A DNA stretch of 64,000 nt from NCBI GenBank assembly GCA_013265495.1, contig MU062119.1, forward strand, positions 930,001 to 994,000, read 5' to 3'. Positions within the stretch are counted from its first letter, which is position 1, and the number at the start of each line of letters is the position of its first letter. This DNA is from Vicugna vicugna. Its lineage: Eukaryota. The position numbers and the translations under genes are program-made. The notes beneath the pieces are model-generated. The model worked only from the letters and a program-made list of their open reading frames with translations, had not been told where the DNA came from and did no database searches. Below, piece by piece: positions 3,205 to 64,000 of this stretch.

Positions 3205-3262
3205 TGACTTATCCCAATTTTAGAGGAAAGAAACTAAAGGCTTAGAGGTTGTTACTTGCCCT
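3205..3262 (+). mobile_element. MIR core fragment
   Basis: 'cccaattttagaggaaagaaactaaaggcttagaggttgttacttgccc' matches the MIR core. Paralogue near 24140-24200. Confidence 0.55.
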
Positions 3263-3312
3263 TGAATAAATAATATCCATACCACAAGATGCTGAGAATA
3301 TTGGTCTGGCAC

Positions 3313-3678: not shown

Positions 3679-3699
3679 AGGCTAGCCTCCCAACAGGGG

Positions 3700-12126: not shown

Positions 12127-12993
12127 TTTTTTTTTTAATTAATGGAAAACTAAGTTTAATGTAACTTTCTGAAAAGAAATGAAATAACGGCATTTAAAAT
12201 TAAAGAAAATGTATAGTTTTGAAAGTGTTACATTTAAAAAAATATATAGCAACTGAGTTTTATTTATTTATTTTTATTTGATTTCATGTGTTCTTTTTTT
12301 TAACATTTTGATTTATAATCATTTTACAATGTTGTGTCAAATTCCAGTGTTCAGCACAATTTTTCAGTTATTCATGGACATATACACACTCATTGTCACA
12401 TTTTTTTCTCTGAGTTATCATAACATTTTGTGTATATTTCCCTGTGCTATACAGTGTAATCTTGTTTATCTATTCTCCAATTTTGAAATCCCAGTCTATC
12501 CCTTCCCACCCTCCACCCCCCTGGTAACCACAAGTCTGTATTCTCTGTCTGTGAGTCTATTTCTGTCCTGTATTTACACTTTGTTTTTGTTTGTTTGTTT
12601 TTGTTTTTTAGCTTCCACATATGAGCAATCTCATATGGTATTTTTCTTTCTCTTTCTGGCTTACTTCACTTAGAATGACATTCTCCAGGAGCATCCATGT
12701 TGCTGCAAATGNNNNNNNNNNNNNNNNNNNNNNNNNNNNNNNNNNNNNNNNNNNNNNNNNNNNNNNNNNNNNNNNNNNNNNNNNNNNNNNNNNNNNNNNN
12801 NNNNNNNNNNNNNNNNNNNNNNNNNNNNNNNNNNNNNNNNNNNNNNNNNNNNNNNNNNNNNNNNNNTCCTGAAGTAGGGTTCCTTCTGGATACAAGCTCA
12901 GGAGTGGGATTCCTGGGTCATATGGTAAGTCTATTCCTAGTCTTTTGAGGAATCTCCACGCTGTTTTCCATAATGGCTGCACCAAACTGCATT
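12127..12993 (-). mobile_element. 5'-truncated young L1 with a probable 3' transduction
   Basis: ORF2 C-terminus (WKTAWRFLKRLGIDLPYDPGIPLL...LENVILSEVSQKEKEKYHM) and 3'UTR. The poly(A) appears as T tracts at ~12294-12301 and 12127-12136. Confidence 0.9.
12712..12866. other. Assembly gap (155 N) inside L1
   Basis: N run. Confidence 1.
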
Positions 12994-16457: not shown

Positions 16458-16790
16458 TTTTGGAGAGTTTTTTCACATGGTTTCAGCAAATGAAGCCTTT
16501 CTCTAAGGGTCTGTTCTGCAAGTATTTGCAGAAATTACCCAGTGCCGACAAAGTTGAGGTGAGTAAGCTCCAGGTGAGCTGCTGAGGCAGACAGCTCCTC
16601 AGAGCGAGGAAGGCCTGGAAGGATTGTTCTCTTAAAGGGGAGTCCTGAGGAGGTCATTTCATGTCACAGGCAGATACTACACCTCTTTAAATTCCCCAGT
16701 CCCCTGGAATTTCCGGAGAGAGAGGAGGGAACAGTGCCTGTCTTCTTCAAAGTCAAGTTTAATTCCTAAGGAAATTCTACTACAGCCCAG

Positions 16791-33600: not shown

Positions 33601-33959
33601 CAGTTCTAAATAGGCAAACCAATCGGCTCATAATGACCCCAGAGACTAGAAGAATCATGATTCTAGAGTCAAGATTGATTGATTCTAAGAGTTCACAATC
33701 CCTATTTATCAGGAGTGGAATTAACACTACATCTTGCTTCTGGAATATTCCTGCAGAGGTAAAGTTTATCAATAGAATAAATCAGTTGACTGATCATTGT
33801 GATTATTTGGATTCTGGCTGACAGTAAGTTCCTGGTACCACCTCACATCATGAACCCAGATCATCCTCTTTGCCTTGCTATCTTCCTAATCATAGGAGAA
33901 GGAAGTTTACAGGTCTTTGGATTCTTGATGAAAAGAATCAACAGAAAAGCCTCCTTCCT

Positions 33960-34920
33960 GCATCTCTTAGGGCTGGGTCTGCGAGATGAATAGAAATGGG
34001 ACTAAAAATACAGAAGTGTGATGCTAAAATGTCAGGAATGGAAACTCCAGCAGAAAGGCCCAGTGGACACTGTTTACTGAGCAATAAAGAATTGTTAACA
34101 ATGAAATATTGTTGAGAGCTAGCATTATTGAGAAACTCATTGGTGACTCTTTGTAGGCCAAGGTTGACAATAGAGATGACATTACAAATCTGGAATTCTT
34201 TAAAGCAGTAGGGATGATACAATCCAGAATTAATAGCAACTAGGAGGCAGTGTAAAATCATCAAAAGAAAGTTTGGGACAATTATCATAATGAGACACAA
34301 GATCAGCAGGGTTGACCAGGGAGAGTTAAAATGGTTACTAGAACAAGGCATCCCTAGGGGCAGGATAGACTGCTAAGAGTTACAGCTCAATCATTGCAAC
34401 CGAAATAAACAAAAAATGGAGGGTGAGGCTGAGGGCAGCCTGTCATGATCACCTGCCAAGTTTCCAGACCTGAGCATTTTCAGACCTAGAAACCAAGAAT
34501 TGAAAGAACTACATCCCCAAGATGAAAACCATGTGACCCCATGGCAAGTATATATGGTAATAACTTCCCATTTATTCCTCAAATGGCCTACCCTGTTCAC
34601 TTGGGTGTCCTACACTTTGTATTCCTCTGACCCAAACATTTCATGACTGTTACACCTAGATTCTAAGACAACATTGATACCTGGAGATCCATAGCATGAT
34701 ATAGTCCTCCTGTTAGGGAGGTTGTGTATTGGCCAGATAATTAAGTCACGACCCAAGCTCAGTGGCCACAGAACCACCCAGGGATAACTTCTCTACCAGA
34801 GTGCATACCTGGAATGAAGATATGTGGTCACTGGCACAATCCTACTGCTGTATTCTTACCTATAAGATAAGAACTATCATGAGTGGCCAAGATACAAAGT
34901 CAAATATTACATTCTGGAAG
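33960..34920 (+). mobile_element. ERVL (HERV16-like) gag C-terminal half, protease and RT start, degraded
   Basis: 'ccagtggacact...tgtaggccaagg...gggacaattatcataat...catccctaggggcaggataga...ccaagtttccagacctgagc' match ERVL gag; 'ggccaagata' matches the RT start. Paralogue at 43990-44940. Confidence 0.75.
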
Positions 34921-37900
34921 GAACTGGTGGGATCGGTTAGACCTAATTTTCAGGTCTCTCTGTATAACATGAAGATTCAATCAGGGTGCCTACTATGTGT
35001 AAGACACAATTGTAAGTACAAGTGAATACCAAGTGAATGCAAGAAAAATATCCTGCCGTCAAGAAGTTTAGTGTAGATTAAACATAAGTAAACTTTCTAG
35101 CCCATTAGAAAGTATTCACACTATACATGGAGTAGGGATAAAGGGGTTCATTCAGACATACCCAGGTGCAAAGATCTAAACTGTAAATTGGGTAGTCAGG
35201 GTTGAACTCATTGATGGAACGTTGACTCCCTAACAAGGAGGCGGTTTGGGAGTACGTAGGTAGCTCTCTGGAGGAGGCAGACATGAGTTGGGATTCTGCT
35301 GGCATGATTCCGATAGGCTAAAGCAGAGCAACAGCCAGAAGTTTCCAGAAGATGGGAAACAAGAGGAGTTACTCATTAGTTCCTGTTTCATAATGATTGA
35401 GATTTGATTCCACCAGGGCTACATTTCAATGCATTAGATAAAAGGTGAATTTTCAGGAACTAGTCCCTTTCTGATCCAAGTTTTCTAATCCTCTCCTTCA
35501 CTAGACAAAATGTCCGTCATCCTTCCAATTGAAGAATCCAGCAAGCTTCAGTCTGATGCCTGGAAGAAAAAGCTATGGATGTTTCCACTGGCTTTTTAGT
35601 CCTCAAAGTGTAATTCAGACACTGAACTCTGAGGCAGGTTATCAAAGAAATGATTTTCTACTTCAACTTTTTATTAAAGAAGCACACATGAAAGTATGCA
35701 AATATATGGTTTCTTAAATGAGCAAGTGCTTCATTTCTCTGACACTTTGGAGCCTTCTGATTTGTTAGGACAGAGTCTGGCTGCTGCCTCCTTGAATATA
35801 TTCACTACCTTTCCTGTTAGCTCACTCAGGCTCTGAGTTTTGTTTAAACTGTATAGGGAAGTTGTCATAATGGCCAAAGAGCTCAGAACTCCAATTACAG
35901 GTGGCTTTTATATCTCTGGATAGATGTTCTTACACACTAGATAGAAGAATGTACTAAAGAAGCCACCTCCCTGATGTGACTGGGTGAACAGCGTGGGATG
36001 TGTACTACATCAGAGGTTAATGGTTTATTGGTGGCTCTAAGTAGAAGAACAGATCAGCTCATCTAGAGGATTAGTACACTTTGAGTAGATAACTTTTTTA
36101 TTCTTGAGTGAACATATTCCTTAGGAAAGACAGAACCTTTTAAATCTGTAATACCACATACCTTTAAAATTTAGTCCTTGAATATATTGTTCTGTATGGT
36201 GTAAGGTTAGGTTCAATTTTCCTCTTGCATGTGATCAGTTATGCTAATCCCATTTTGAAATACCTGTCTAACTGAAACAGAGTAACAGTGGGCAGCTAGA
36301 ATTCACACCTCATATCTCAGTGCTTCAGCTGAGTCTGAAATTAGCAGGAAGAGCCTCAGTTTCCCAGGACTGAGTCTGGAACTACCTCATCTCCTGCCTG
36401 GGGTGGTGTGATGGGGACTATACCCAATCTTGGCCTCATCCTGGACAAACCATGGCCAAAGATGTTAGAGGTGATGAGCAGCATCTGGGCTTCCCTTTTG
36501 AGCATGAGGCTGCATGTCCCAGGTGACAGGGAGACATAATCTGAGGAAGGATTTGAATTATTCCCATACAACTGCAGAGAGATTCTCATCAAGCTTCCAT
36601 TTATACCTGAGGTACTATAGAAATCCATCCAAAAAGTACTGAGATTCCTTTTGGTCATGAAACATTAGCATATCGGCCCTGAACTTTATCTGTAATGGGG
36701 ACCAGAAACGGCAAGTTATTTTTTAGCTAATGTGGCAAGTCCAGATCTTTCATATAAAATCAAAGCATTGTATATATAAATGATTCCAGAAACACAGATG
36801 TGTGGACCTACTACTGAACAGGCACCAAAGCTGACCTGTGTCAGAGCTGACCTGTGAGTCAGGATTGTTGGTGGATGCAACGATACATATTTAATCACAT
36901 CCAAGTGGGGCAGGAGGTCCATTATGAGATCTCAGAACCACTTCTTGCGGCCTCGAGTAGAGAGAAAGATGAGTCCCAAAATGTGCCTTGGGATTCTACA
37001 CTAGTACCTGGCAAAAATCTGGAAGAGGAACCTGGCTCCTCTTTAGAGTCACCTTTCCTAGCTTGATCACTACTGCCAGCCTAGAAAATTGTGTCTGGGA
37101 CTACAAACACTGGCACCAAAAGGATAAGCTCCTGTTAACTAACTCTACCACCTCTGGTCTACCAATATGTCAGTGTGTTTGGAGAAGTGGGTGCCAAGCA
37201 TGTAGAAAATGTCCCTTAAAGGATAAGGGCGGGAGAAGGGAAGTATTGGAGAGCCATCAGAATGGGATGCAGGTCTGAGACCTGTGAAAGGAGTGAGGAA
37301 GGGAGGAGGACTAAGAAGAGCCTCTGTGTGCCAGCTCTGAAAAAGTTTTAGCCGGGGCAGCGGGCAGCCCTAATTGTAGATTCCTACATTGGACAGAACA
37401 AAAAATTAGGCTGGAACAACGTGGGGAGAACATGGTGTTGGCATGTCCCTGGTAGTAGATCCTGAAGGTCTGACAGGTGGAGACTGTCGCCCACCTACAC
37501 ACCTTGAAGGATGCCACAGTCGATATTGAGATAAATATATAATCATGCTTGACTTTACCAGAGAAAAAGATAAATGAGCTTTATCTCATGGCCATGTTAG
37601 ACACCAACCAGAAGAGCACCCTGAGAGATCCCAAAGGTTTTCTCTGCATCAGGAAAGAGTGCTAGGTTGAAAAACAATGTGTGCTTCCAAGGAAGAATGT
37701 GGCATCAGTGCTGTGCAAAATATTAGGGTATTTTGCCTGACTTCTGATTATTCCAAAAGACAAAGGGGCACAGGAGTGGAAGAGTTAGAACCTTGTTCAA
37801 CCAAGGCATGTATTAACTTCACATGTTTATGAACATTCACTTCCTGCTCGATATCTAGGGCACAAAAAGAAATACAGCTGAATAACATACCATTCTTGCT

Positions 37901-41870: not shown

Positions 41871-42049
41871 CAATTCTACTTATTGAACAATGAAAGGAAA
41901 TACACACAAAATAAACATCACATATCTACCAAGTTTTGATGATCAAAGCCTTGAACCTTGGAGGTGGGGAGTTAATTTATTCCCGCAGACTCTAGATACA
42001 AGTTACCAACTTTCCTCCTTAAACAACTTAACCTATGGCTGGGTATCAG

Positions 42050-43450
42050 GTTCTCAAGTAACACAATTGGACATCTTGAACTTTTCTGCCCTTATGTGGG
42101 AAGAACTATTTTCTGTATGATTCTGAATCCTATCACTGAATGGAAACATATCTAGAAAAAAATCAGTGGCCCCTGAATTGGTCTTTGGGGCTGTTTGACT
42201 GAGAGTGATAGCCTTGAGCATGCAGGCATGGCCCCTAGTCAGATTTCTCCTACTGTGTCTGTGAGGCTTAGATGTAGTATGACGGAAGCCCTTAACAATG
42301 TGCTTAAAGTGGACACTGACCAGTGTTCCCAGGTCACCTACTCTGGGCTTGACCAAAGAACAAGGTAGCAAGACAAATTTCCAAATGACTTCTTAACTTT
42401 GAGAAACGGGTATCAAGGTTAACATCATAATAGCAGAGAGATTGTGTCAGTTCAGGTCCTCCAAGAAACATGTACCAAAGATGGAAGTTTAGGGGGAAAA
42501 TATAAAGATAATGGTGGGAAAAGAACAGGAGTGGGTGGGGAGAGATTTTTGGAGTACAGTGCAGGTCTGACACTGAAACAGAAAAGGAAGGGGTTGGATA
42601 AAAGGGAACTGAGACTGCAGTGCAGCCCTGAAAGAAGTCTTGGCCAGCCAAAGGGAAGCCCTAGCACAAAGACTGCTATAAAGGAGGCCATGCTCCTGTT
42701 AACAGTGCCATGCCCTGCCATTGGCTGGAACATCCCCCCAAAGAGTGTGACCTCATTGGATACTGCAGCAGATTTGAAGGAGTGGCAGCTGGAGGATGTC
42801 CCCACCAACTATTCTCTCTGCAGATGAAATTCCTGAAGGATAATCTGAGAAGCAAATAGATCTGTGAGGTATATGTTTGAAAAGCAATTTCTCATTGGTT
42901 CTCTTGGATTCAGGAAATTAGGAGAAGCCAGAATCCTTGGGAACCTATCTGGATATTCTCTATGCAATGGTTCATGGCACCACGTTTTTCCAGACCAAGC
43001 CTCGAGCTTAGCCTAAGAAACCTGCTTTAGTTGAGCATGTAATACATATCAAACTTGGTTTCTGAGATTGCTCCTCAGCCCTCAGCTGTTTCCATGAAGG
43101 AGTTAAGGGTCTCTTGGTACTACCAGAGATGTCCCTGTCTCTTACACTAATCCTTTACCTATTTGTTAACTACACTCATTTACCCTGTAACCCTCTGCAG
43201 AACATGGCCTCCACTTTGGAACAACTAGATATCTTTACTGTCCTTCTGGGCATTGTTGTTACCCTGTATCTTTCAATGCTAGAATCATTGCATTGGCCAA
43301 TAGCATCCTCTTCTAGAGGAGGAATATTTTCTCAGATGGCCTGCAGGAAAATCTTAAGCACATGGGTATCTACTGTGTGCCTGGGACTTCTAAATGACCT
43401 CTGTTCCATTTGAGATCTTCAAATTTCCAACTTCAAATTTCTTGGACCAT
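42050..43450 (-). mobile_element. ERVL gag fragment with a nested LTR16-like solo LTR (~42442-42915)
   Basis: Minus-strand gag motifs ('gagacccttaactcc', 'caggtttcttaggctaagctcgaggc') flank 'tgtgtcagttcaggtcctccaagaa...'. Paralogue at 48880-50280. Confidence 0.7.
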
Positions 43451-43489
43451 TCAATTAATTATTAATTAATGATCTTTAAAATCCAGAAA

Positions 43490-46400
43490 GACTCTATTCA
43501 GAAAACACTGTAAATTTTATACCTAAAGTGAATGGAACTACAGGGTAATCAAGTAAGCCCAAAGGGACAAGAAGAATCATGATACTAGAATCAAGACATG
43601 TCATAATGTCACCTAACTAACCATGGATTACCTCCATAACTAGCCATGGATGTCTGATTTCCTTACTTAGGAGTTTGAAGTCTATTCTAAGGGAATAGGA
43701 TTAACAATGCACACTTGCCTTCCTGAAGTATTCCTGCAGAGGTAAAACCGTGCAGTTATGGTAGTTGAGCTGACTATTATTAAATGAGATCATTCGGACT
43801 TGGTGGCTGACAGCTGAGCTCCTGATACCAGCTTACACATCATGAACCAAGACTGCCTCTTGGTCTTGCTATCATAAACCCTGCAGGAGGAAATTTACAG
43901 ATGTTGACTTTTTCCAGAATCTCAGTAAATGCTTTCAGTTAAGGTTCTAGGTTGTGAGATAAATGAAAAAGGGATTTAAAAATAAAGAACTAGGGATCTT
44001 GGAATACAGGGATAGAAAACCCACCAAATGACTCCACAAAAAGTCCCAGGGGACACTGCTCACCAAAGTAATAAAGAATGTCCTAAGAGATCACTTATTA
44101 AGCAATTGAGTTGTGGCTGTTCCCTGTAGGCCAGGTCTGACCAGAAGAATTCCATAAATCCAGACTTTCCAAAACTATGGTGATGATATATCCAGAAATA
44201 TTAGGAAATTTGTGGCACCACAACAAGACAGTTTGGGACAATTATCATGAGAGGCAAGTTAAATAGAGCTGAGAGGCAAGATAACCAGGGCTGGCCTATG
44301 CAGCGTTAATAAACAAGGCATCCCTAAGGACAGGCAGCAATAGCACAGCTCAGTCTGTGCAACTAGAAGAAATCAAGCCTGGATGATGCTGAGAGTAGCT
44401 GTGATACTAGAATCATGATCTCTTGCCAGGTTCTGAACCTGAGTCTCTTTTCAGACCTGGAAACCAAGGACTGAAAGAGAGGCTAGGTCTTCCAAAAGAA
44501 TGACCCTCTAACACCATGTCAAATGTGCATGATAATAATTCCCCACTTCTCCCAAGAGGACCTAAACTTACTACTTGGGTTACCAACACTAGATGTTTCT
44601 TTCCTTAAATATTTTATAACTATTAGGAAGTTTCTAAGACAACATTAATCTCTAGAGATCCACAGAATAATCATGGCCCTCCTGATAGAGATTGGACGTT
44701 GGGCCAGATAATGAGTCCTGTCCCAGACTTAGTGTCCACACCCACCAGTGATCATTTTCTGGTACTTGACTGCATAATTGGAGAAAAAGTGCTTGACAGT
44801 TGGCAGAATCCTAATAATATCATCCAAGCCCATAGGGTAAGAGCTACCATCATGGAGAACACCAAATGGAAGAATCTAAAACTTGCCATCTAACAGCCAA
44901 GATAGAAACTCAAACACTGTATTTGGATGGTACTGGAAAAGAGTTTGACGTAAGTTTGAGGTCCTGTTGTTTAAGATGAGGGTTCAATCAATTAGTGGGT
45001 CCCTACTATGTATCACACACCATTGAGTCCTAATGACACTCAGTGAATGTAAGAAGTGTCTGTGCCATAAAGAAGGGTAATTTAATGTGGACTGAGCATA
45101 AGTTAATTCTCTAGTCTCTTAGGAATTGTTCACACCATAAATGGAGCAGGATAGAAGGCAAATCAGGCATGGCTGGGTACAACAATCTATCATTTAAATG
45201 GTTGGTCAGGGTTGAATTCACTGAAGAAATTCTGAACCAAAACTAAAAGGAGATTAGGGAGTAAATGCATAAGTACCTGGAGGAGACAGACATAAGCTGG
45301 ATCCTGCTGGCATGTTCCAGAATGGCAAAAAGAGCAATTCTTAAGAGTCGCAGGAGATGGCAGACAGAGGAATTCTCTCACAGTTCCTGACCAGTCGATT
45401 GAGATTTGTCCCCATACTGTTCAATCTTCAACACAGTATATAAGAGTTTTCAAGAGCTTGGAATTCGTCGTTTTCTGATCCAAGCTATCTAATTATCTGC
45501 TTTACTAGACAAAGTGAAGGTGTGTCTGTCATCCTTCCACCTGAGGACTCAAGCACTCTTAAGGCTGGTGCCCGGAGGGAATAAACTACTAGTTGGTTCA
45601 TTGGCTATTTATTCCTCAACTAGACAGACTTTAAGATTCTCGTTCTAAGGCTCCCTCTCAAACGCTTTTCTGCTTTTTCAACTTACTGAATTATAATTAG
45701 CACACAGGTACGGATTCAAACATACAGTTCTTTGAATTATCAAGTGCTGCTTTTCTTTGAGGTGGTTCTTTGGAAGCTTCTGACCTGTTGAGACATGGCC
45801 TGGCCACCTCCCTGACTTATTCATTACCTTCCTCATGAGCTCACCCAGGCTCTGAGTTCGGCTTTAACTGGCTAGAGTAGCTTGTCATGATGGCCAAAGC
45901 CTAGAAACCAAGTTACAGGCTTCTTTTCTATCTCCAAATCGAAGATATGCCTAAACTGTACGCATAAGTACTAGAGGAGCCTGTTCTGTTTTGACTTGGT
46001 GAGATGCGAACCCACCTCAATGATTAACAGTTGGTAAGGATGTTCTAAGCAGGAGAACAGATGAGCTCATCCTGGGGTTTATCACATTTTGAAAGTTTGT
46101 GCTTCTAAACCACTCTCTCCTCCACCTCGTAAGTTAAAGTCTTTCCTAAGGGATGACGGAAGCTTCCAAAACTCAAGTTTCCACATTTCTATTTACTCTT
46201 AAAATTTAACCCTTGAATTTAGTGATCTGTATGCTGTAAGGATGGGTTCAACTGTCATCTTCCACATGAACAGCAAGGAACGCACAACAAATTTTGAAAT
46301 CTTTCTAACTGAATCAGAAGAGTAGTGGCCAGGCTTGACACCTCACATCACAATGTTTCACTGTGTCTCAAAATAGTGGGAAGAACCAGAGTTTCTCTGG

Positions 46401-48400
46401 GACTTCTAGCATCAGACCTGAGTGTCAGAGTTGCTTTAGCTCCTGCCTGGGAGGGTGTGATGTGGACCATGCCAAAGCCAGGTCTTTCCTGGAGAGGCTG
46501 CAAACACTGAGATGTGATGGGCAGTAACTGGGCTCTCATTTACAGTGTGAGGTTGCATGTTGCAGGAGGCAAGGTAATCTGGGGAGGTGCATAAATTATT
46601 CTTGAGGTGCTCTTGAGGTGTTCTTGAAATCACCACTATACCAAGTTTCCTTTTCATCATAAAACTTGGAATTAATGTATCAGCCCTGAATTTTCTCTAA
46701 TGTAGACCAGTAATGACGAGCTATTTTTTAGCTAATGTGCAGTTCAGGTTTAGTACATCAGAGCACTTTATATAAATGTTTGCAGTACCAGATGTACAGA
46801 GCAGCTGAACACACACCAATGTTACCTGCTTTGGAGGGGACCAAAGGCCAACTGTTGGTGGATGAGTATATCATGTATTCAGTCACACTCAGGTAGGGCA
46901 GAGGAGCCATTACATATGATCTCAGGATCACTTTTTGCTGGGTCTAGTAGAAAGATGAGCCCCCAAAATGTGCTTTGCCCTCCTACACTAATACCTGGCA
47001 GGAACCTGGAGGAGGAATCTGCCTCTTGGAAGTCAGCTTTTCTATCTTGCTCACTACTTCCAGCTTAGAAAATCTTGTCCTGGGATCACAATACTGGCAC
47101 CAAAAGGATAAATTCCTGCCTATTTAATTCTACCACCTCCTGTATATCAATGTGTGTGGCAGGGTCTTCTGAGAAGCAGGGACTAAAGTAGAATTAGACA
47201 TGTAAGAAAAAGGCCTCTAAGTGGAGAAAAGAGGGAGCAAGAAAAGGTGGGCAAGCCTTCAGAAGGGGATGTCTGATACCTGTAGAAAGAAGACAGGATT
47301 GAGTAGCAAGGGCTTGACCATGTGCCAACTCTGAGCAAGTCTTTGCCAAGCCAACTGGGAGCCTGTAGAGCCTGTCTGCCAGCAGAGTCCTGCATCGGGC
47401 AGAACCAGGTCTTAGACTGGGAACAGCTTGGAGAGGAAGCAGCCTCGGCAGTAGAGCCTAGACGTGTGGTAGCTGGAGACTGTTTTTGTCTGACACTTTA
47501 AATTAAACAAAAAAATTTTTAAAGTATAGTCAGTTATGATGTGTCAGTTTCTGGTGTACAGCATAATGTCCCCGTCATGCATACATACACAAATATTCAC
47601 TTCCATATTCTTTCATTAAAGGTTACTACAAGATATTGAATATAGTTCCCTGTGCTATACAGAAGAAATTTGTTTATCTATTTTTATATATAGTAGTTGA
47701 CATTTGCAAATCTCAAACTCCCAAATTAATCCCTTCCCACCCCATCTCCCTGGTAACCATAAGCTTGTTTACTCTTTCTGCAAGTCTGTTTCTTTTGTAG
47801 ATGAGTGATTAGTGTCCTCCATTTTTTTTTTTTTTTAGCTTCCACATATGAGTGATCAATGGTATTTTTCTTTCTTTCTGGCTTACTTAGAATGACAATC
47901 TCCATTTCCATCCATGCTGCTGCAAATGGCATTATTTTATCATCTTTTTCACTGAGTAGTATTCCATTGTATAAATATACCACAACTGCCTTATCCAGTC
48001 ATCTGTTAATGGACATTTAGGTTGTTTCCATGTCTTGGCTGTTGTATATAGTTGGCTATCTGTACACTTCATTATTGCCTTGTCAGTATTGGAATTAACA
48101 CATAGTCATTTTCTTGGCTTAAAATTGAGTAAATGATAATCAGGTTTCAACTCATGGGTCAATGATATATTCACTCATATGTTGAGAGATCCCAAAATTT
48201 TCTAAGTGTCAGGAACAAGCATTGGGTTGAACTATCAATGCCCACCCTCAGGGAGGGATGTGGAATCAGTGCTATGCAAAAAAAAAGTTATTTGCTTTGC
48301 CTGTTCTGAGACTTCTATCTCAGTATTTTTCTCAAATTTATAAAATTGCTTTTCAGATCTCTAATACTTGTCAACCTGTGTCCTGAGAATGTTATTAGCT
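43490..48400. repeat. Amplified unit, copy epsilon (ERVL gag-pro-RT + strand at 43990-44940; L2 ~44995-45090; core; LTR16-like ~46880-47490)
   Basis: Colinear with alpha and delta, but more diverged. Confidence 0.8.
47505..48050 (-). mobile_element. 5'-truncated L1 3' end (intermediate age)
   Basis: The minus strand gives L1 ORF2-end peptides (MVYLYNGILLSEK..IMPFAAAWMEMEIVILS) and the 3'UTR 'tgtgtcagtttctggtgtacagc'. Absent from the alpha and delta paralogues. Confidence 0.85.
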
Positions 48401-48879
48401 GTTCTGACATGTGAAATGCAGTAAGAAATTCTACACAACTGGCTGTATAAATCCCATGTTGTAGTGCTGTTCATTTTAAAGCGTTAACTACATAGCACAG
48501 TTGTAGAATGTGCAGAACATACAAAAAAAATTAGGATTTATGCTTGTTCTGTGCTGTCAGTTAAACCTTGGCAACCAAATTTGATATTCTTAAATGTATA
48601 TTCACTCACAATGTATATTCTAAATTATATTCAAAAATCAAAGTTCAGTTCACAGTGTACCTTACATGCATTTCTCTCACATGGTTATGTAACGTGGTAT
48701 GGCTGATACATTGCCTGTATTCAAACCAATGCTCCTCATTTCTGATGGAATGGTGCTAATAACACCTCGAGGTCAAGCTCCTCCGAAATAGGCTGGTCCA
48801 TTGCCATAGACCCTGGGTACAAGGCACCTACCTTTCACTCTTGAACAGCTTAATTCTCAGCTGTATGTTAGCTTTTAGT

Positions 48880-50280
48880 TGTGACACCGTGATCACTTGA
48901 GTTTCTCTGCTCTATTTCTTGCACTGTTCTGACTCCAATCACTGATGGGAATCCTTTGTAGACAGTATTAATAGTCCCTGAGTATATCACTGGGGCTCTT
49001 TGGGTGTAACAGGATCTTGGAGCTTGCTGGCATGTCTGTGAGGCTTAGGTGGGATGGCACAGAAGCCCTGAGGAACTCAGTATGGTTAATGTGTAAACTG
49101 ACCGGTATTCCCGGGTCAGGCGATCTGGACTTTACCTAAAAGCCAAGTAAGAGGTTATGTCATCTAGAAAATTAAAGTCATCTGAGAAGATGTGTCAGAC
49201 TCAGCATCCATATGATAAGTGGGAATATGTCAGTTCAGATCCTCCAAGAAGCAGGCATCAGGTGTAACGACTTTGGGGAAAGCTCTAAGAATAACAGGGA
49301 GAAGATATCAGGAGTGGGTGGGGAGGAACTTTGAAATGCAGTGCAGGTCTGACATCTGAAATGGGAGGAAAAAGGGGAGGGGAACTGAGTAAGAGGAGAC
49401 TGACTACAGTGCAGTTCTGACTTGGGCTCCCCCTTGGCTGGACAAAACTTCCTCAAAGATTGCCTATAAAAGATACCTGCTCAGAGGGGAATAGCACTGT
49501 TCCTGTAACCTTACCATGCTCAGTCACTAGCTCAGAGAATCCCAAGAAGGTTAGGCAAGTGGATGCTGCAGTGCAGAGGGGCAGCACTGAAGGATACCTC
49601 CACCATCTAATCTCCTTGTACATAATCCTCTTAAAATCTAAGCAGCACATCTCCATGGATTATTTCTTTTCTGGAGAAACAAATTTGTGAGGGACATGTT
49701 TGAGAGGCAATTCCTCTTTGGTTCTCATGGCTCAGGGAAGTTTGAAGAGCTAAAGTTGCTCAGGACTCACACATATGTCTCTATCTGATGTTTCAAGGCC
49801 CCATGTTTTTCCAGACAGCCCTGATCTTAGCATAGAGACCTGCTTTAGTTGAGCATGCACAGCTTTGAGCTTTGTCACTGAGCTAGCTTCTTGGCCTCTG
49901 CTATTTTTCTGTAGAAGATTCTGTAGGAAGGCCTTCTTGTAAACTATTGAAATCAAGTTTATGCCTTCTGGCTCTCCCACTTATCTTTTACATATTGACG
50001 ACCCTCAGGTACTCAGTAAACCTCTGCAGAACACTGATTCCATCTAGGACCAACTAGCCATCTCTGCTGTCCTTTTAGACATCTTTACAATCTTTATACT
50101 GTACCGTTCAATACTTGTATCATTGTATTTCCAATAGCATTATCCCATACAGGGACCTTTACTCAGGTTACCAAGGTTGAAGTCCTCAGTAATCGGAGAG
50201 CTACCGTGTTCCTGGAATTTTCTGTATAATTCCATTTGATATCAAATTAATCTTACTGCCTGCTTTCTTGGACCACTTCC
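48880..50280 (-). mobile_element. ERVL gag fragment with a nested LTR16-like solo LTR (~49229-49735)
   Basis: Same insertion point and flanks as 42050-43450. Confidence 0.7.
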
Positions 50281-50289
50281 ATTCCTCTG

Positions 50290-52780: not shown

Positions 52781-52813
<33 letters not shown>

Positions 52814-53312: not shown

Positions 53313-53953
53313 ACTAGAAAATTTAGCAACTTGTATTTTTAGTCCTTGCATCTTTTGGGGTCAGTTTGATAGGACAGTAGGTTGGCTCACCCCCTTGAAA
53401 TTGTACCACGTCTCGCTGTTGGAAACACTGATGTAATTCAGAGAACTGGTAATCTGCTGTTGGAGTGCACCTCTCCAGGACTAGAAAATAAGAGACAGGG
53501 ATGAGAAGTGACCAGGCTCACCTATTTACTAGATGACATTAGGTTTCCCAACAGAAAATAACTGGTTTGGGTGGGAGTGTAAACTTTCTGCTTTCATACT
53601 TTCTCCAGAGACCATTATTCTGGTCTGAGTAGGGGAGGTTAGGAAGGAACAAGAAACAGAATATGAAGGACCTTGAGTAACTAGTCTAACTTTATAGGTT
53701 ACACTGTAGGGTTTTGATTATGTGTCACAGTAAAATTTGGGATTGCTGGAAAACTTGCTCATGGCACAACCAAGGGTGATCAGTATGATTACATGCAGAT
53801 GGAGGTTTTGGATAACATTATTTGACACCCAGAGAGAGTATCTGTTTGTCAATGCCTGGGAAATTCTTATCAAGTTGTCCTTCCAAGCCTGGAGCAGGGG
53901 GTGGGGGTCGGGCAAAGTCAACAAAGAAGCATGACAAAAAGAAGGGCAATCAT
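53313..53953 (-). pseudogene. env SU N-terminal fragment (copy 2)
   Basis: ATG at 53953; LTLPDPHPLLQAWKDNLIRISQALT. Truncated at the same point as copy 1. Confidence 0.75.
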
Positions 53954-54019
53954 GTTTCTAGTTCAATGTGTGGATTTAGAAGCATCAAGCAAGTAATCTA
54001 ACAAGTGAGCTACTCATCA

Positions 54020-56142
54020 CTTTTGGAGGCTGCCTTCTGAATAGCAACTTGAGACCTATCAGGGATTCACTTGTCCATTCGGAGACATCAGCGTTGGGAG
54101 CATGGAGCCAGGCAAGGTCGGGGTGACTACAGCCACGATGGTCTCCAACAGCATATTTTCAGTTCCCTATGAGGTTTCTGTAGATCGGCGGTGCCCCTGG
54201 GGATGCTTGTGGAGCTAACTTAACTCGAGTGTGATGAATCCACAGCTTGACTCATTTTTAATATCACTGAGGAATGGGTCACTACTAGCACCTCAAAGTC
54301 TGGTCCAGCAAGGATGGAGCTGGTTTTCTGGGTGCTCCTTTTTCTAAGACTCTGAGTAGGACCTAGTCTTCAGGACACAGTGGTGCAGAGGAGCATCTGT
54401 GGGAAACATCAATCTGCTAGAAGCAAACTTTTATAGAGCGTTAGAGTAGTTCCTAATGATGGTACATACCTGACAGTGTTTTGTTCCTTGATTCCAGTGC
54501 CTCCGGTCTCCTAAATCAAGTCTAGAATATAGAAATGGGCTATATAGGGGCTCAACTGAAGCCTGCTTCTAGGGGCCACTCTCACCCAAAGGAGGGTGCT
54601 GGTAAGGCTTTATCCCAAGGTAAATTTGTGTCTTGACAAATCTTAGCTAAAGTCCTTTTTAAGAGTGATTCATCTTCTTGCCAGGAGATTGCAATTGCCA
54701 AGAAGCGTGTAGTTTCCAACTGCTATCTGAGGCACCGAATGCTTGAGTTATTTTTGCCACAAAGGCTCAGCCACTGTCACCTTCAATAGACACAGGTATC
54801 CTTATGGCATTCCCAATCCAGTCTAGAGATTCACTGTCCCCTCCTTTAAGAGCTTTGTAAAGGCTTTAGCTATGAGTCCAAAGTATAAGGCGGCAGAACC
54901 CAGCTGGTCCCAGAACCTGCAACTGTTCCCTGGTAGTGAAAACTGCAGTCCTGGCTGGCGTGTCCCTTCTGTCAGGGGACAAGCTTCTCTATCCTTGTGA
55001 GAGTTTGAAACCCAAGTATTAAACAGAAGGCTGGGAGATGTGTGTCTATTTCTTAGATATCTGATAGCTTGGTTCAGCCAAAAAGTTCAAAGTCAGAACT
55101 GTATTCTAGTCAGAGGTGACCTTTGCTTTGCTGGCAATCAGAGTATCATTCCATTAAAGGTCCCTCAAGTCCTTTGCCAAGACTTTTCCCAAATATAGTG
55201 GGGGCACTTTCAAAATCCTGAGCAGGCACTGTCCAGCAGCACTGTTGTTTAACTCCTGTACCTAAATCTTCTCATTCGAAAGCAAGCACCTTGGGATTCA
55301 CAACTCAGGGGTACACAGAAAAAGGCATCTTTGAGACTTTCTGTTACCTTCACCATGGACTTCAAAGCAGTGAGCAGAGTGTATGGGTGATGGACAACTG
55401 GATGAGTATCTTTCACAATTTGATTAATTTCTCTCAATACAAATCATCTGTGCCTGGCTGCTACACTGGTAAAATCTAAGTTATCATAAGGCGACCAGCA
55501 GGAGTGCACCAAGTCATAGTCAAGGAAGGCTGTTGGCAGGGGCTGCGTCCCTTGCTCTGCCCCTTCCTTTAATGGGCACTGCCTTCAGCTTGGAACTTTG
55601 GCCCCAGGACAGTCTGACTGTATGGGCGTGGCTGTTCTTGCTCTCCCTTGCCTCTCCTTAGCACATACGTCTGGACCTACCTCCTGCAGGATCTCTTCTG
55701 GATGTGCTGAGGATATTCCTTTTGGGGTTGGAACAACTAACCCACAGTGCACAAGCCTGCTTGGGTGGTACCTTAATGCCCATTTGTCCTGGTACAAAGA
55801 TACACTTGGCAATTAATTTGGCTTATAATCTCTTCCTAGTAGAAGAATGGGATATTCAGGCATGTACAAAAAATGATGCTTTGGATGAATCTTCCCCATC
55901 TGACAGTCTGAGAGCTGGAGAAAGGGCTTTTTCAGGGTTTCTCTGGACATGTTACTAACATAGTCTCAGAAGAAAGTTCAGAAAATGAAGTATTCAAAAC
56001 CAAGTAAGTGGCTCCCATATTGATCAGAAAGTCCAAAGTTCATTTCCCAACCTTGTCATCACCTGGGGCTCTGTGTGGGAAATACTGAGGGACTCAGAGG
56101 GATTTAAAGAACCCCTGGGCCCCATTATTCCTGGTCATTGTC
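54020..56142 (-). pseudogene. pro-pol pseudogene (copy 2); RNase H to IN-N deleted near 54810; YVDD motif damaged near 55140-55160
   Basis: RT thumb 'GFCR...LYKAL...ESLDW' joins directly to IN core 'IP.SIEGDSG'. 'LRDL*WND TLIAS' lacks an intact Y-x-D-D. Confidence 0.8.
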
Positions 56143-57615
56143 ATTCTCAATCAGCTCAGACATGTGTTATTTCCCCCTAGTTCACCTCCCTCGTGAGCCT
56201 CACTCAAGATAAGACACTCTCTTCCAGCGTGACTTCTGTTAGCACATTGGGCAGGGTCCCCCCACTGCTGGGTGTCTCTTGTGGGTGGAAGCTTGGGTCA
56301 GGGGCCTCCTGCATGTGCCGGGTCCCTCCTGGGGACCTCAGTGTGGTCTGGCTCTTCCCTGTGTCCAGGCAGCCGAGTGGCCTGTTTCATCTTTCGTTGC
56401 TCCTTTTCACTCCTGAACCTGACCTGTCATGGGAAACTTTAAAGGCAGTTTCTACCAGTTGAGACCCAGGCTTCCCCAAGACCCCTCTCCCCCTGTCACT
56501 TCCTCTGTATGTCAGGGGGGCTCTGACCATGAAACATATTGAAGTTCTCTGGTGCCTTAGGATATGCATCAGTGTGTTTCCCGTAGGCCTCAAAGACCCC
56601 TTTGAGAAACTCTGAAGGATCTTCGTTTGGTTTGTTTTCTTCCTGCACTTTTCACAGCTTCATTATTTGAGGCACTGTAGTCCTGCAAGAATACAGTCTC
56701 AAGAATCATGTTCAAATTTCAGTCTACCACGTGCATTCACACCCCAGTTAGGCCCCATTCGGTGCAGCTGCGCCTGCTGCAGCCTGCACCGGGTTGCCAG
56801 GGGTGTCTGCATGAAGCCGATCTGCCACCTCCATAGTTTTTTTCCTAGCACCATTCTTCTGAAATAAGGAAGGTGATTAAGTAAATTGCTAACATCTGCC
56901 CAGATTGGGTTGTCGGTAGAAAAGATGTTTTTATTCTCGATGAATTGGAAGGATGATATGCCAACATAACAAATCTGAAGTTGAAAAAGGGGGAATGGAC
57001 TCAGGTCAATTCCATCAACTGCCCAGCCTTAGAGCTGAGGCCTCCTATGGGACTTGCCTTAATGGCTATTGCCCTGCCTGGTTCTGGGTAGCTCCTTGGC
57101 CAAACCAGGACCCTGATAGGTGTGAAATGGGGAGAACATTCCTATTTCCTGACCCTCAGGGACTCGGGGAACCTGAGCCTGAGGTTGTGATGGAGATTCA
57201 GCCATATGTGGGTGGAGGAGCAATCAAGAGTATTCAACTGAAGTGATAGTAAATCATCCTCCTTTTCATTAGAATCAGACAAAACATTGTTTTGCCTTTC
57301 CTTTTTTTCTGGACCACAGTCATACTTTGCACAGGTTTATGCTGGTATAAGAACATAAAACACAGAACACAAGGTTTTTCACACCATTTTTCTTTCCATT
57401 TACAAGGTACATCTAATTGTAAAATTGTATTATAATTTAAGGATCATTTTTCAGGCCATTTTTTTCCTCAAGTCTAACACCTATCGTGTCCAAGTGGTGT
57501 TATGAAAAAAAAATAGTACCTTTTTCATTTACATGGGTTGATAACTAAAAGTTGCCCAATTCTGGAGAATGTAACCTAGAAGGCTGCAAGGGAGAATGGA
57601 ATTAACACTTCTCAG
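56143..57615 (-). pseudogene. gag pseudogene (copy 2)
   Basis: Homologous to 14955-16457. The start codon is mutated, and there are stops and frameshifts. Confidence 0.8.
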
Positions 57616-58437
57616 TTTGGAAGGTTTTATTTTCCCCTGCGGCTGCAGTAAACGCTACCCAGGCAGACCCTCAGAAAGGCTTTGTTTGTACAAATTATCC
57701 AGTGTCGACAAAGTTTGGGGAAGTAATCTCCAGGTGAGCAGCTGATGCCACTTTTGTCAGGAATGATGAAGGCCTGGAAAGACTGCTCTTTTAAAAGAGG
57801 GTCCCTAGAAAGTTGTTACATGTCATGGGCAGACATGCCAACACTTCTGTCCCCAGTCACCTGGAATTTCCCAAGAAACTGGAGGGAACAGTGCCCCTTT
57901 TCTTCAGAGTCAAGGAACCCTCCTAGGTTAATTCCTAAGGGACTTTTATTACAGTCACCAAGGAATTTGGCCCCTAAATAGCCAATTCTGAATAATCAGA
58001 ATGACAGAGACAGACAAAGCCAACCCCCAGGTTTGAGAACCTTAGCAGCTCCCGCTTTTCATGGTTTCTTGCAAAGGGTGGACCTCTAACCCATCACCCT
58101 GGCCTTGGGACTCCAAGCCAAGGGTCTGGATCTAGCCTGACTAAAATCTGCCCAAGGTGGGAGTCTAAACCACAATCTTGACCAGATTATTAGACAACTT
58201 AGGCACAGGTAAGTTTTAACAAGGTTACTCACCCAAGGAAATCTTCCAAACCCGGGAACTATTTCTCAGCTGCAGAGGGAAACCATGCACCAAAGGTCGG
58301 CACCTCTGCACTGGGAACATCCTGGGGAGAGCTCTGGGGACAGGTGATCCCCACCTGACGCTTCTGTTATTTGTCCCCAGGCTCCCAGGACTAGCTAGGG
58401 GCCAATAAACCATGGCAAAAATCTGTCTGGACTTATT

Positions 58438-58455
58438 CTGCTGGCTGGCTCACAA
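58438..58455 (-). promoter_or_regulatory. Primer-binding site, tRNA-Arg(ACG)-like
   Basis: The minus strand reads TTGTGAGCCAGCCAGCAG versus the canonical TGGCGAGCCAGCCAGGAG (15/18; one difference is a CpG decay). It lies 3 nt from the LTR end. Confidence 0.8.
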
Positions 58456-58458
58456 ATA

Positions 58459-59200
58459 TGTTACCAAACCAGGTTCATGTACCAGAGTAGTGGCAAGTCA
58501 CATGCCGAAAGTAGAGGTTGGCAGCTGAGAAAAGTTTCATTTAGGAGGCAGCCAAGTGAGACGACACAAAAACAAATCTCAACTTCACTCCCAGCCCTGA
58601 AGATAGGGTTCAGCGAACTTCATGGAGTGAAGGAGCAAGGGAGTCTGAGGCATGGGGAAAGGTGACTGGAGGTAAGAAAAGTGAGGTAATTGGTGGTCCG
58701 TTGTAAGATTAGTTGAGTTTCACAGCTCCTCATAGGACACAAGTTCAGAAAATGGTTGTTAGTGTGTTCTGAGGGTGGAGTTTGGGCCCCCTGACATCAA
58801 AAGGTCATGAATCAGACACTCAGGCCCGGTTGAGTGGCAAATGGTCTCAACCAGTTTGAACTGGGCAAGACTTAGCTCCAAGTTCCTGAAAAACGACTTA
58901 AGCAACAGTCACTATAGTGAACCATATGTCAGACGTTCCTGTAAGAAAGCTAATGGGAGCTGAGTTTAAAGTCAACTAAAAGCAAGAGAGGCAGGTTAGG
59001 GTTGGCAGGTTAGCCCTGGGTTTCAATGCCGCCTTGTTTCTGTTCATTCCTTATTCTTGAGCGATTCAGGGAAACGGCCCCTGTGGCTGCTTCCTGATAG
59101 CAAAGGGCTTAGGCCAGACAAGGGCTTGAGGAACAAAACTGTACAGTGTTCATTTGGAAATAGTTTCCGGTTTCTGGTTTCATGTTAACAGTTTATATTA
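58459..59200 (-). mobile_element. Class I LTR (MER4-group-like), shared between proviral copies 2 and 3
   Basis: Ends ...GGTAACA at 58459 on the minus strand, next to the PBS. The other end (59190-59209) adjoins a degenerate PPT 'aaaagaggcacaa' (59210-59222) and the end of env. Confidence 0.8.
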
Positions 59201-60583
59201 TTAGAATTATTGTGCCTCTTTTAACAGCCTCAGGATATTTAAGAGCACGTTTTATAAGCAAATGCCCAACTAAAATTTTGGATGAGAAATACAGATAACC
59301 CAAGCTTTGATGGTCCCTGAATAATACATCTCTTCCCTTGGGGAATCCAGGAGATTCCCAGTCTGAAAACCAGTCTGGACCTGACACTTCTGGGTATACT
59401 TGTTGCCGAGTGCCTTGTTGCCTTATTTTGCCTACATGGGTTTCTACTTTAGAAGAAACATTAATATATGTGTGATAGGAGGTATCAGGAGCAACAGCAA
59501 CTCTGCCTCGTCCAGCCAGGATGTCTAGGACTACCTTTCTCATGAGTCATTGCCTTCTGTTGGGCAGCTGCAGCTAAGGATGCTTCATGTGCTATTATGC
59601 CGAGGGTAATGGAAACATTCCTAATCCTATGCTTGTCTGATCTGACTCCCCGCCATGGTGAAAGCACTCTACTGAGCGTGTACCCAAAGCCGTCCTCTTG
59701 ACTCACAGGCAAGTAGGCAGCCCTGCTTATTCTGGAGAATGACGGGAAGGAACTAGTCCAATGCTGAGTCTCACTGGAGTCGTGGAAAGAAAAGGGAGTG
59801 ACTAAGTCTACAAGGAAGGAGCCTCCAATTCTCCAACTGTCGAAATGCGTCCAGGCCCAAGGTTGCCCCTGGGACTACAAAGGCATGTTCCTGCAGGGGC
59901 GCACGGAATGCCAGACGTATTCTGGAAGATGAATGTCTCATTCACGGGGAGACCGCCTGGAACTTGATCAAGCTAGGGGGTCAGTATGAGGCAGAACCCA
60001 TGAGGAATAGTTTACAGCTTGATAAGGGAGCTGGTTGGACCATTCTTTGAAAACCTACCAAGTCTTGCTTTTGGAAACCTTGATATCATTCAGAGAACCA
60101 GGAACCTGATGTTAGGTGCACCACTGGGGGGCTAGAATATAAGAAGCCGGAGGTAAGGGGGAGAGAGATGAGTAATGCCACTTAGTAAACAGACAAGCCT
60201 AGATTTTCCATCAGGAAAAGTCTGCTTTTGGTGCGAGTAAGTCTGTGTTCACATTTTTACCCAGAGACCATTATAGTGGTCTAGGGGGAGAGGGTGGTTA
60301 GGAATAATTGGGGAAGGGAAGATGAAGGCCCTTGACTAACCATTCTAACTTTATAAGTTATACTTTGTAAAGGCTTTTGATTATATGTCACCATAAAGTT
60401 AAGGATGCTCAAAGCACAAAAAAAGTGGTCAGTATGAAGGTTTTGGATGACATATCCAACAGCTAGAGACACTACCTCTCTTTGCCACCACCCCACCACG
60501 CCAGCATGGAAGGACAATTCAATGATTAGAACTTCCCAAGCTTTGGCAAAGTCAACCAGGAAGCATAACAAAAAGGGCATCAT
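59193..60583 (-). pseudogene. Near full-length gamma-type env pseudogene (copy 3)
   Basis: ATG at 60583; CWIC at 60450-60461; PCAPAGT; R-I-S-R cleavage-like site at 59722-59733; heptad 'IRNVSITL...AQQKAM'; 'RKVVLDILA...TYINVSSKVETHVGKIRQQ'; degenerate membrane anchor. Confidence 0.85.
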
Positions 60584-60661
60584 ATTTCTAGTTCAGTGTG
60601 TGGATGATTTAGAAGTCAGTCAAGTAATCTAATAAGTGGTTACTGTAGGAGACTGCCTTCT

Positions 60662-62147
60662 TTTTTTTTTTTTTTTTAAATTTTTTTTGATTCATAATCC
60701 TTTTTCTGTGTTGTTTCAATTTCCAGTTTTCANNNNNNNNNNNNNNNNNNNNNNNNNNNNNNNNNNNNNNNNNNNNNNNNNNNNNNNNNNNNNNNNNNNN
60801 NNNNNNNNNNNNNNNNNNNNNNNNNNNNNNNNNNNNNNNNNNNNNNNNNNNNNNNNNNNNNNNNNNNNNNNNNNNNNNNNNNNNNNNNNNNNNNNNNNNN
60901 NNNNNNNNNNNNNNNNNNNNNNNNNNNNNNNNNNNNNNNNNNNNNNNNNNNNNNNNNNNNNNNNNNNNNNNNNNNNNNNNNNNNNNNNNNNNNNNNNNNN
61001 NNNNNNNNNNNNNNNNNNNNNNNNNNNNNNNNNNNNNNNNNNNNNNNNNNNNNNNNNNNNNNNNNNNNNNNNNNNNNNNNNNNNNNNNNNNNNNNNNNNN
61101 NNNNNNNNNNNNNNNNNNNNNNNNNNNNNNNNNNNNNNNNNNNNNNNNNNNNNNNNNNNNNNNNNNNNNNNNNNNNNNNNNNNNNNNNNNNNNNNNNNNN
61201 NNNNNNNNNNNNNNNNNNNNNNNNNNNNNNNNNNNNNNNNNNNNNNNNNNNNNNNNNNNNNNNNNNNNNNNNNNNNNNNNNNNNNNNNNNNNNNNNNNNN
61301 NNNNNNNNNNNNNNNNNNNNNNNNNNNNNNNNNNNNNNNNNNNNNNNNNNNNNNNNNNNNNNNNNNNNNNNNNNNNNNNNNNNNNNNNNNNNNNNNNNNN
61401 NNNNNNNNNNNNNNNNNNNNNNNNNNNNNNNNNNNNNNNNNNNNNNNNNNNNNNNNNNNNNNNNNNNNNNNNNNNNNNNNNNNNNNNNNNNNNNNNNNNN
61501 NNNNNNNNNNNNNNNNNNNNNNNNNNNNNNNNNNNNNNNNNNNNNNNNNNNNNNNNNNNNNNNNNNNNNNNNNNNNNNNNNNNNNNNNNNNNNNNNNNNN
61601 NNNNNNNNNNNNNNNNNNNNNNNNNNNNNNNNNNNNNNNNNNNNNNNNNNNNNNNNNNNNNNNNNNNNNNNNNNNNNNNNNNNNNNNNNNNNNNNNNNNN
61701 NNNNNNNNNNNNNNNNNNNNNNNNNTTTGAAATGTATGTCAGATAATGTTTTGCCTATGTTTTCCTCTAGGAGGTTTATTGTATCTTGTCTTATGTTTAA
61801 GTCTTTAATCCATTTTGAGTTGATTTTTGTATATGGTGTAAGGGTGTGTTCTAGCTTCATTGTTTTACATGCTGCTGTCCAGTTTTCCCAACACCATTTG
61901 CTGAAGAGACTGTCTTTATTCCATTGTATATTCTTGCCTCCTTTGTCGAAGATGAGTTGACCAAAAGTTTGTGGGTTCATTTCTGGGCTCTCTATTCTGT
62001 TCCATTGGTCTATATGTCTGTTTTGGTACCAATACCATGCTGTCTTGATGACTGTAGCTCTATAGTATTGTCTGAAGTCTGGGAGAGTTATTCCTCCAGC
62101 CTCATTCTTTCTCTTCAGTAATGCTTTAGCAATTCTAGGTCTTTGAT
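60662..62147 (-). mobile_element. 5'-truncated young L1 with a perfect 14-bp TSD
   Basis: ORF2 peptide [34 protein letters not shown]. Poly(A) appears as T tract at 60661-60677. TSD GGAGACTGCCTTCT at 60648-60661 and 62148-62161. Confidence 0.95.
60733..61726. other. Assembly gap (994 N) inside L1
   Basis: N run. Confidence 1.
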
Positions 62148-64000
62148 GGAGACTGCCTTCTGAATAGCACTTGAAGACCTATCACGGATTCAACGCTCCA
62201 TTTAGAGGTCAGTGTCTGGGTGTGGAGCCAGCCAAGGTTAGGCGACCATGGTCATGATGGTCTCTGACATCATGGTTGCCATTCCTTGCAAGGTTTCTGT
62301 AGATAGGACTTGGTGATCCTGAGGATCCTTGTGGAATCAACTTGAATGTGATGAATTTAGATCTATGTCTTGACTCATTTTTTAATATCACTGAAGAATG
62401 GGTCACTAGTAACAGCTCAAATTCTGGTCCAGTGAGGATAGAGCTGGTATTCTGTATGCTCCTTTTTCTAACATTTTCAGGAGGACCAGACTCCAGGACA
62501 GATATTGTGCAGAGAAGCTTCAGAGGAAAACATCAACCTGCTAGAAGCAAATTTATAAAGGGCAGTTAGAGGAGCTCCCAATGATGGTACATACTTGTCA
62601 GTGTCTTGTTCCTTGATTCCAGTTCTCTTGGGTCTCCTAAATCATTTCTAGAACATAGAGAGGGGCTACCATATAACATTTCACTGGGGATCCATTAGAG
62701 ATTACCTTTAGGGGCTACCCTCACCCGGAGCAGGGAACTTAAGAATTATTCCTTTTTGTAAGGCTTTAACAATCTCAGAATCCTTTTTGGACTGGTAGGA
62801 AAAGCTTCTACCCAACCAGTGAAACTGTCCACATATACGAGTAAGTACCTAAAATTCCAAGTGTTTCTCCACATCACAGTGAAATCAATCAGCCAGTCTT
62901 CTCCAGGTCTAGTGCCTCGGGTCTGAACTCCTCTGGTTACTTGAGGTGGCCCAGTTTCTGGGTTGTTTCTAGCTCATACCATACATTTCTGTATTACTTT
63001 TGAACAGTCTTTTTGTTTATGTGGTCCTATAATGAATTTCTGAATCTAGTAGAGGGTGGCATCCTTCCCCTAGTGTGTGCTCTGGTGTATATGATTTATT
63101 ACACCCTCCAGAAGATACTCAGGTACAGGGACATGTCCATTATAAATCCATCCTTCCTTGGTGTACCTATAGTGGGTGTCCTGAGGATGGTCAGGACTTT
63201 AGTCAAATCCCCATTCACTGGCCCTTTCTAAGTCCTCAAGAGTATACTGCAGATAGTATCTTGATGAATCCACTTCAAGAATCAGAGCCAACAAAGGAAT
63301 CTATGTGTTTTGATCTTAGCCGCTAGCATCCTGGCCTGATTGGCTTGATTTTTCCCTCAAGCAGTCAGTCTGATTTCTGGTGCCCTGGGCCATGGACAGT
63401 GACCAGTTTTTTTTGGCTCCATGACAGCTTCTAATAAGTTTAAAATTTCTTTGGCATGTTTAAGTTCTTTCTTCCCTGCAGTTAACAGTCCTCTCTCTAT
63501 CCAAATGGCTCCATGGGTGTGGACCACTGAAAAGATGTATTTGAAATCAAGAAAATAATTACTCTCTCATCCTTATCCATATGGAGGGCTCTGGTCAGTG
63601 CTACAAGTTGAGCCTTCTGTGTGGAGGTACCTGTGTGGGGATTCTGCTTCCAGTGTCTATGGATGGGTCACCACCAAACGCCCAGCTTTGCATTTTCCCT
63701 GGTCCATGAAGCTGCTCCCAATTGTGAACATCTCAAAGTCTTAAGTCTCTAATGGCAAGTCCCTCTGTTCAGGGCAGCTAGAATAGACCTATTCAATTAT
63801 GTGAATAGAATCATGTACAGGTTCTTCAAAACTAGTGGGAAAAAGTGTATCTAGGATTAAGGTTGTGGCTGCCTTCAAAGTGACCTTAGGGTTATCCAGT
63901 AATATATATAGCCTGGTGTTTTCCTAATCTTCCTGAGACTGACCATTATCCTCCTTTCTGTTCTAAGAGGGAAAGCACACAGCAAGGGTTATGCACAGTG

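Follow-up and report, generated by a model that had tools for sequence, protein, structure and literature searches.

A 3'-truncated tandem of old class I endogenous retroviruses sharing one LTR in the Vicugna vicugna genome

The window, i.e., the whole stretch of 64,000 nucleotides analyzed (contig MU062119.1, positions 930,001 to 994,000), carries on its minus strand two head-to-tail retroviral internal regions, copy 3 and copy 2, with a single LTR (LTR B) between them. Together with the sequence beyond the window, they form an LTR-internal-LTR-internal tandem. Its full minus-strand order is LTR A, PBS, leader, MA, pro, pol, an L1-like insert, env, 3' UTR, PPT, LTR B, PBS, leader, gag, pro, pol, and 5' env. 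The original prediction had read pol, env, PPT, LTR, PBS, leader, gag, pol, and env in this direction, and all were found in that order, with pro also lying between gag and pol. The features, in window positions, are as follows.

10862 to 16785, minus strand: copy 1, a third internal region without an LTR, inside an old tandem segmental duplication; its gag, leader, and env are like those of copy 2 and its pol is like that of copy 3
16785 to 16788, no strand: head-to-tail join of the segmental duplication, with the break inside the copy 2 leader
53361 to 58458, minus strand: internal region of copy 2, comprising leader, gag, pro, 5' pol, a large pol gap (join at ~54801), 3' integrase, and 5' env; env is cut at ~53361 and no 3' LTR follows
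58438 to 58455, minus strand: tRNA-Arg(ACG) PBS of copy 2
58459 to 59025, minus strand: LTR B, shared, 567 bp, TG...CA; solo relatives align with it end to end
59026 to 59040, minus strand: decayed PPT abutting LTR B
59041 to 60647, minus strand: env (start at ~60583, many stops and shifts) and 3' UTR of copy 3
60662 to 62147, minus strand: 5'-truncated L1-like insertion in copy 3 with a poly(A) and a 14-bp target-site duplication (62161-62148 / 60661-60648)
62148 to 64000, minus strand, continuing beyond the window: pol of copy 3 with the RNase H-integrase block and a deletion join at ~62737
66250 to 66821 (window-equivalent; L011 2250-2821), minus strand, outside the window: LTR A, the 5' LTR of copy 3

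LTR B is flanked by internal regions of the same direction, and both of its joins are native: the PPT abuts the TG, and the CA is followed by the PBS. This layout agrees with the proposal that one LTR serves copy 3 at its 3' end and copy 2 at its 5' end. The predicted LTR start (~59200) and PPT (59222-59210) were both ~175 bp too far upstream. The true limits of the LTR are 59025-58459, exactly where its solo relatives start and end, and the PPT occupies 59040-59026. The stretch 59200-59041 is internal 3' UTR; related sequence precedes the LTR start in L025, L074, and L072, which have the same 3' UTR-PPT-TGAAA layout. The PBS-Arg had been placed correctly at 58455-58438 and matches the complement of the 3' end of host tRNA-Arg(ACG) plus CCA at 15 of 18 bases, while the PBS of copy 3 matches it at 13 of 18. 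This host tRNA was present at all six loci scanned. Nested insertion of copy 2 into the tail of copy 3 was rejected: LTR B directly follows the PPT, and a leftover 3' LTR was not found.

The assembly comprises 2.03 Gb in 12405 contigs, and this fragmentation is compatible with a mis-join inside or beside LTR B. However, the native joins argue against such an error. Gap-free identity to any other LTR copy found does not exceed 79%, which is too low to mislead an assembler. Moreover, in 20 of the 24 sequencing runs listed (from 7 studies and 2 organisms), 85-93% of the 333 words sampled across 57500-60600 were present, a measure of presence and not of continuity. We consider a mis-join to be barely conceivable. 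LTR B has at least 42 genome matches (40 scored of 147 candidates). An LTR unrelated to the internal regions, set out in advance as fatal to the predicted structure, was ruled out: this kind of LTR flanks the internal family at both ends at the ordinary proviruses L074 and L117, and a homologous leader follows LTR A.

The 5' LTR of copy 3 had been expected beyond 64 kb. It was found there, 2.3-2.8 kb outside the window, and is followed by a PBS and the homologous leader. The part of copy 3 beyond the window consists of pro, MA, leader, PBS, and LTR A, with most of gag missing. An outer 3' LTR for copy 2 was not detected in the window and the 40 kb before it (three queries, E 0.1), and neither the 3' env of copy 2 nor a further LTR, LTR A excepted, was present in the window or within 40 kb on either side. 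We concluded that the locus is a real shared-LTR tandem, a 3'-truncated remnant and not a complete three-LTR array.

The retroviral identity of the array is based on integrase matches in copy 3, a weak capsid match in copy 2 (E 0.004), motifs identified by eye (protease, RT, and TM), and colinearity with other proviruses. The Pfam matches in copy 3 were Integrase_H2C2 (E 1.3e-5) and rve (E 2.6e-4), in one of the 12 frames scanned. A Pfam scan of 91 open stretches gave nothing significant, env and gag had no significant Pfam match, and protein homologues of the integrase fragment were not obtained (0 of 170 candidates scored). The TM part of the copy 3 env matches 38 other places in the genome. 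The L1 label of the insertion in copy 3 was read from the sequence and not from a repeat library. The gag-pro-pol-env order with a retroviral integrase, the TG...CA LTRs, the tRNA PBS, and a 4-bp target-site duplication place the array in ERV1; a duplication of this length marks class I retroviruses. All four of its bases match at L007 and L074, three at L004 and L006, and two or fewer at L002, L003, and L008, and 3 of the 6 scorable solo relatives of LTR B match at 3-4 bases. We take the LTR ends to resemble those of MER34/MER110.

A second tandem is present in the same genome at G000:C9438, where LTRs of a sister subfamily form the same LTR-internal-LTR-internal arrangement, with a third LTR ~7 kb on.

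L071 ~2987-3541, L072 3821-4351, and L116 ~2267-2813: LTRs of the C9438 tandem

Among the 13 other leader-bearing LTRs examined, the C9438 middle LTR alone is also preceded by a 3' UTR. This second case, one in 13, suggests that such fossils are not rare. The outer flanks at C9438 have no matching target-site duplication; those of L074 do match. The last 3' UTR at C9438 contains a further, nested LTR-like element. The dispersed relatives L074 (C4265) and L117 (C11641) have one identical RT-to-integrase deletion join, and it is likely that deleted, non-autonomous genomes were mobile in their sister group. L123 and L129 (C8998, ~61 kb apart) are LTR-leader copies with near-identical leader matches and are probably a recent segmental duplication.

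The prediction that the tandem is ancient was borne out by the divergences. Copies 2 and 3 differ by a K2P distance of 0.229-0.288 over four regions, and LTR A and LTR B are 73.4% identical (K2P 0.338+-0.032). The copy 2/3 distances do not exceed that between the LTRs, which agrees with a start from near-identical sequences. Copies 1-3 form a clade (100/100) and are separated from five dispersed copies by 0.35-0.42 in the 3' integrase; these comparison copies, as far as an LTR was seen, all belong to sister LTR subfamilies, and their LTRs are ~60-65% alike where aligned. At 2.2e-9 per site per year, a rate given in the accessible part of PMC4335370, these distances would correspond to an age of roughly 50-80 My. 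This date is loose because the branches of LTR A (0.31) and LTR B (0.26) are longer than those of the closest solos (0.13-0.18).

Copies 2 and 3 have in common a G-to-C change late in the PBS with an adjacent one-base insertion, which among 14 aligned PBS regions occurs in these two copies only. PBS changes tend to be reset by the tRNA in replicating lineages, as stated in the available text of PMC4549124. A clean one-base gap in RT, a pol frameshift, is common to copies 1-3 and absent from four other copies. The PBS lesion and the frameshift favor the duplication of one provirus. However, since the dispersed internal copies are all of sister LTR subfamilies, the changes shared by copies 2 and 3 may be subfamily traits. 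Five exclusive changes common to LTR A and LTR B within ~70 columns of R/U5 also favor duplication. Counting against it, the two LTRs are not sisters in the LTR tree (an open fork), their number of exclusive states (8) is equaled or exceeded by A/L004 (9) and A/L005 (8), and the two exclusive indels per pol region in copies 2 and 3 are no more frequent than in some control pairs (0-3).

Another conceivable route starts from two proviruses of the same subfamily that landed as neighbors in the same direction; the 3' LTR of one provirus would then have recombined with the 5' LTR of its neighbor, and the intervening DNA would have been lost. This route is compatible with the locus because the outer 3' LTR is gone, and the region is dense in old repeats. 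The C9438 tandem has unmatched outer flanks, and its copies differ by 0.25-0.26 in the leader and integrase/env, hardly less than they differ from some dispersed copies (0.275-0.32). The identity between LTR A and LTR B falls from 79 through 73 to 70.5% from 5' to 3' in one pairwise alignment, the direction of a hybrid LTR. However, this gradient by thirds is absent from the multiple alignment (63, 70, and 68%), so that the two alignments contradict each other. Furthermore, no other internal copy of the LTR A/B subfamily was found in the genome, where the counts are lower bounds, which makes an adjacent landing unlikely, and the PBS lesion and the RT gap are common to copies 2 and 3. We consider the fusion of neighbors to be unlikely.

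Copy 1 documents later events at the locus. It lies in a segmental duplication of ~23 kb with unit A beginning 6 kb ahead of the window and ending at 16785, and unit B spanning 16788-57954; the flanks of the duplication differ by a K2P of 0.155-0.227. Unit B is swollen by extra sequence, and the join shows short microhomology. At informative sites, copy 1 sides with copy 2 in leader/MA (15/25) and 5' env (28/44) and with copy 3 in pro-RT (21/32), while the 3' integrase is even (9, 8, and 7). Copy 1 is a segmental-duplication mosaic of copies 2 and 3. Its tract at ~14500-14900 is 88-95% identical to copy 3 (L011 655-1046) and is likely a gene-conversion tract. Copies 1 and 3 lie 50 kb apart here and are otherwise ~80% alike. 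The pattern of copy 1 suggests that, after integration, sequence was exchanged at the locus by conversion or template switching.

Alignment confirmed the prediction that the two internal regions are diverged and carry different deletions. However, the implied independence of these deletions was not apparent, as their ends nearly coincide. In the coordinates of the natural copy L076, the copy 2 gap separates 3498 from 5026, and copy 3 is continuous up to 2983, retains 3509-5022, and picks up again at ~5230. The block that copy 3 retains (RNase H-integrase) sits inside the copy 2 gap with 10 and 3 nt to spare. Both copy 3 joins are also carried by copy 1. In a uniform simulation set up after the data had been seen (2,000,000 draws per tolerance), such a coincidence of ends had p values of 5e-5 (10 nt), 3e-4 (25 nt), and 1.2e-3 (50 nt). 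Its weight is reduced by deletions elsewhere that start at 3400-3600, ~100 nt on either side of the copy 2 left end (L077, L074/L117, and the first C9438 copy). The gap ends are trimmed and do not overlap, and they show short microhomology. We consider that the copy 2 gap and the block kept by copy 3 probably arose in one later cut-and-rejoin event; two breaks, each leaving two ends, would give near-coincident gap ends. Besides copies 1-3, no dispersed copies spanned any of the three deletion joins among 11, 10, and 6 matches, which include no internal copy of the same subfamily and have little power. Splicing was rejected as the cause of the gaps since no convincing donor or acceptor was seen by eye at the joins.

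A further reading is that the tandem was made in retroviral replication, either as a dimer or read-through product integrated whole or as viral DNA recombined into an existing LTR. In the strongest form of this reading, both virion RNAs would be copied, and one nascent strand would consume the RNase H-integrase stretch of the other RNA, with exactly matching gaps as the outcome. The complementary character of the gap ends is consistent with this origin, as are their trimming and microhomology. Tandem insertion has been proposed for plants and reported for yeast (PMC11899658, in the part available). Deletions probably arose before integration in the L074/L117 sister group. In addition, both LTRs of the array carry a changed poly(A) hexamer (ATGAAA/GTGAAA); AATAAA is kept in 4 of the 9 solos shown, and one has a similar change. 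However, one virion normally yields one provirus, a later cut-and-rejoin with four breaks gives the same ends, copy 1 shows rearrangement and conversion at the locus after integration, and the C9438 middle LTR retains AATAAA. An origin in replication is, in our estimation, improbable. The narrower proposal that copies 2 and 3 are two RNAs packaged together in one virion, which were both copied into DNA and inserted as a dimer, with the pol gaps as a 50-80-million-year-old record, appears very improbable. If true, it would provide natural evidence against strict one-provirus-per-virion behavior.

We favor, as fairly probable, the duplication of one integrated provirus by unequal crossover between its LTRs, with a later local history. 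Soon after integration, the 3' LTR of the provirus would have crossed over with the 5' LTR on the sister chromatid or homologue. Copy 2 would later have lost its 3' env and 3' LTR, and a cut-and-rejoin with four breaks would have transferred the RNase H-integrase block between copies. A tandem segmental duplication of ~23 kb would have given copy 1, gene conversion may have acted between copies 1 and 3, and the L1 would have inserted into copy 3. With divergence, recombination between the LTRs would have ended. The original prediction held that the tandem had escaped collapse to a solo LTR. The tandem does persist; however, this calls for no special cause or selection because recombinational deletion slows with age (PMC4335370, citing Belshaw 2007, in the text available) and the LTRs are only 73% alike now. 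No present function is indicated for the array, which is a neutral fossil.

Shared-LTR arrays of HERV-K(HML-2) have been described at 13 loci, including 7p22.1 and 6q14.1, and explained by unequal LTR recombination, the same mechanism as that proposed here for copies 2 and 3 (PMC13648407, as far as its accessible text goes). The HML-2 arrays are young, polymorphic, and class II, whereas the present array is class I, 23-34% diverged, and reshuffled; it lacks the outer 3' LTR and occurs in many sequenced animals. According to the available part of PMC11899658, shared-LTR tandems are widespread in plants, and insertion as a tandem was considered there too. In plant tandem LTR-retrotransposons and in kangaroo and yeast cases, internal regions alternate with shared LTRs as they do here, and the mechanisms under debate and the tests (target-site duplication and copy identity) are alike. 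Two cases in rice are 94-99% identical inside and keep their target-site duplication, in contrast to the present array, which is old and has lost its 3' end. Old class I ERVs of the MER34/MER110/MER89 kind, which the sections available of PMC4724089 and PMC5753468 assign to the HEPSI supergroup and unclassified ERV1, have a similar age range, with a HEPSI LTR divergence of 13-31%; this family name for the array is a candidate.

In a limited literature search, with most subscription papers outside it, no report of a comparably old shared-LTR tandem or of matching gaps was found. With the present results, shared-LTR tandems include a very old class I ERV in addition to young, polymorphic HERV-K and plant elements. 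The matching gap ends would illustrate that two seemingly independent deletions can stem from one rearrangement, which matters for dating and sorting ERV copies.

Another old element, ERVL-like by eye, is present in several copies with 60-70% identity at 29000-53300 of the window, including the pairs 33712-37487 / 43692-47483 and 41979-43456 / 48800-50283. These copies may represent an older layer of local duplication. A CAG/CTG run of ~9 units lies at 52784-52810, inside an old element adjoining copy 2.
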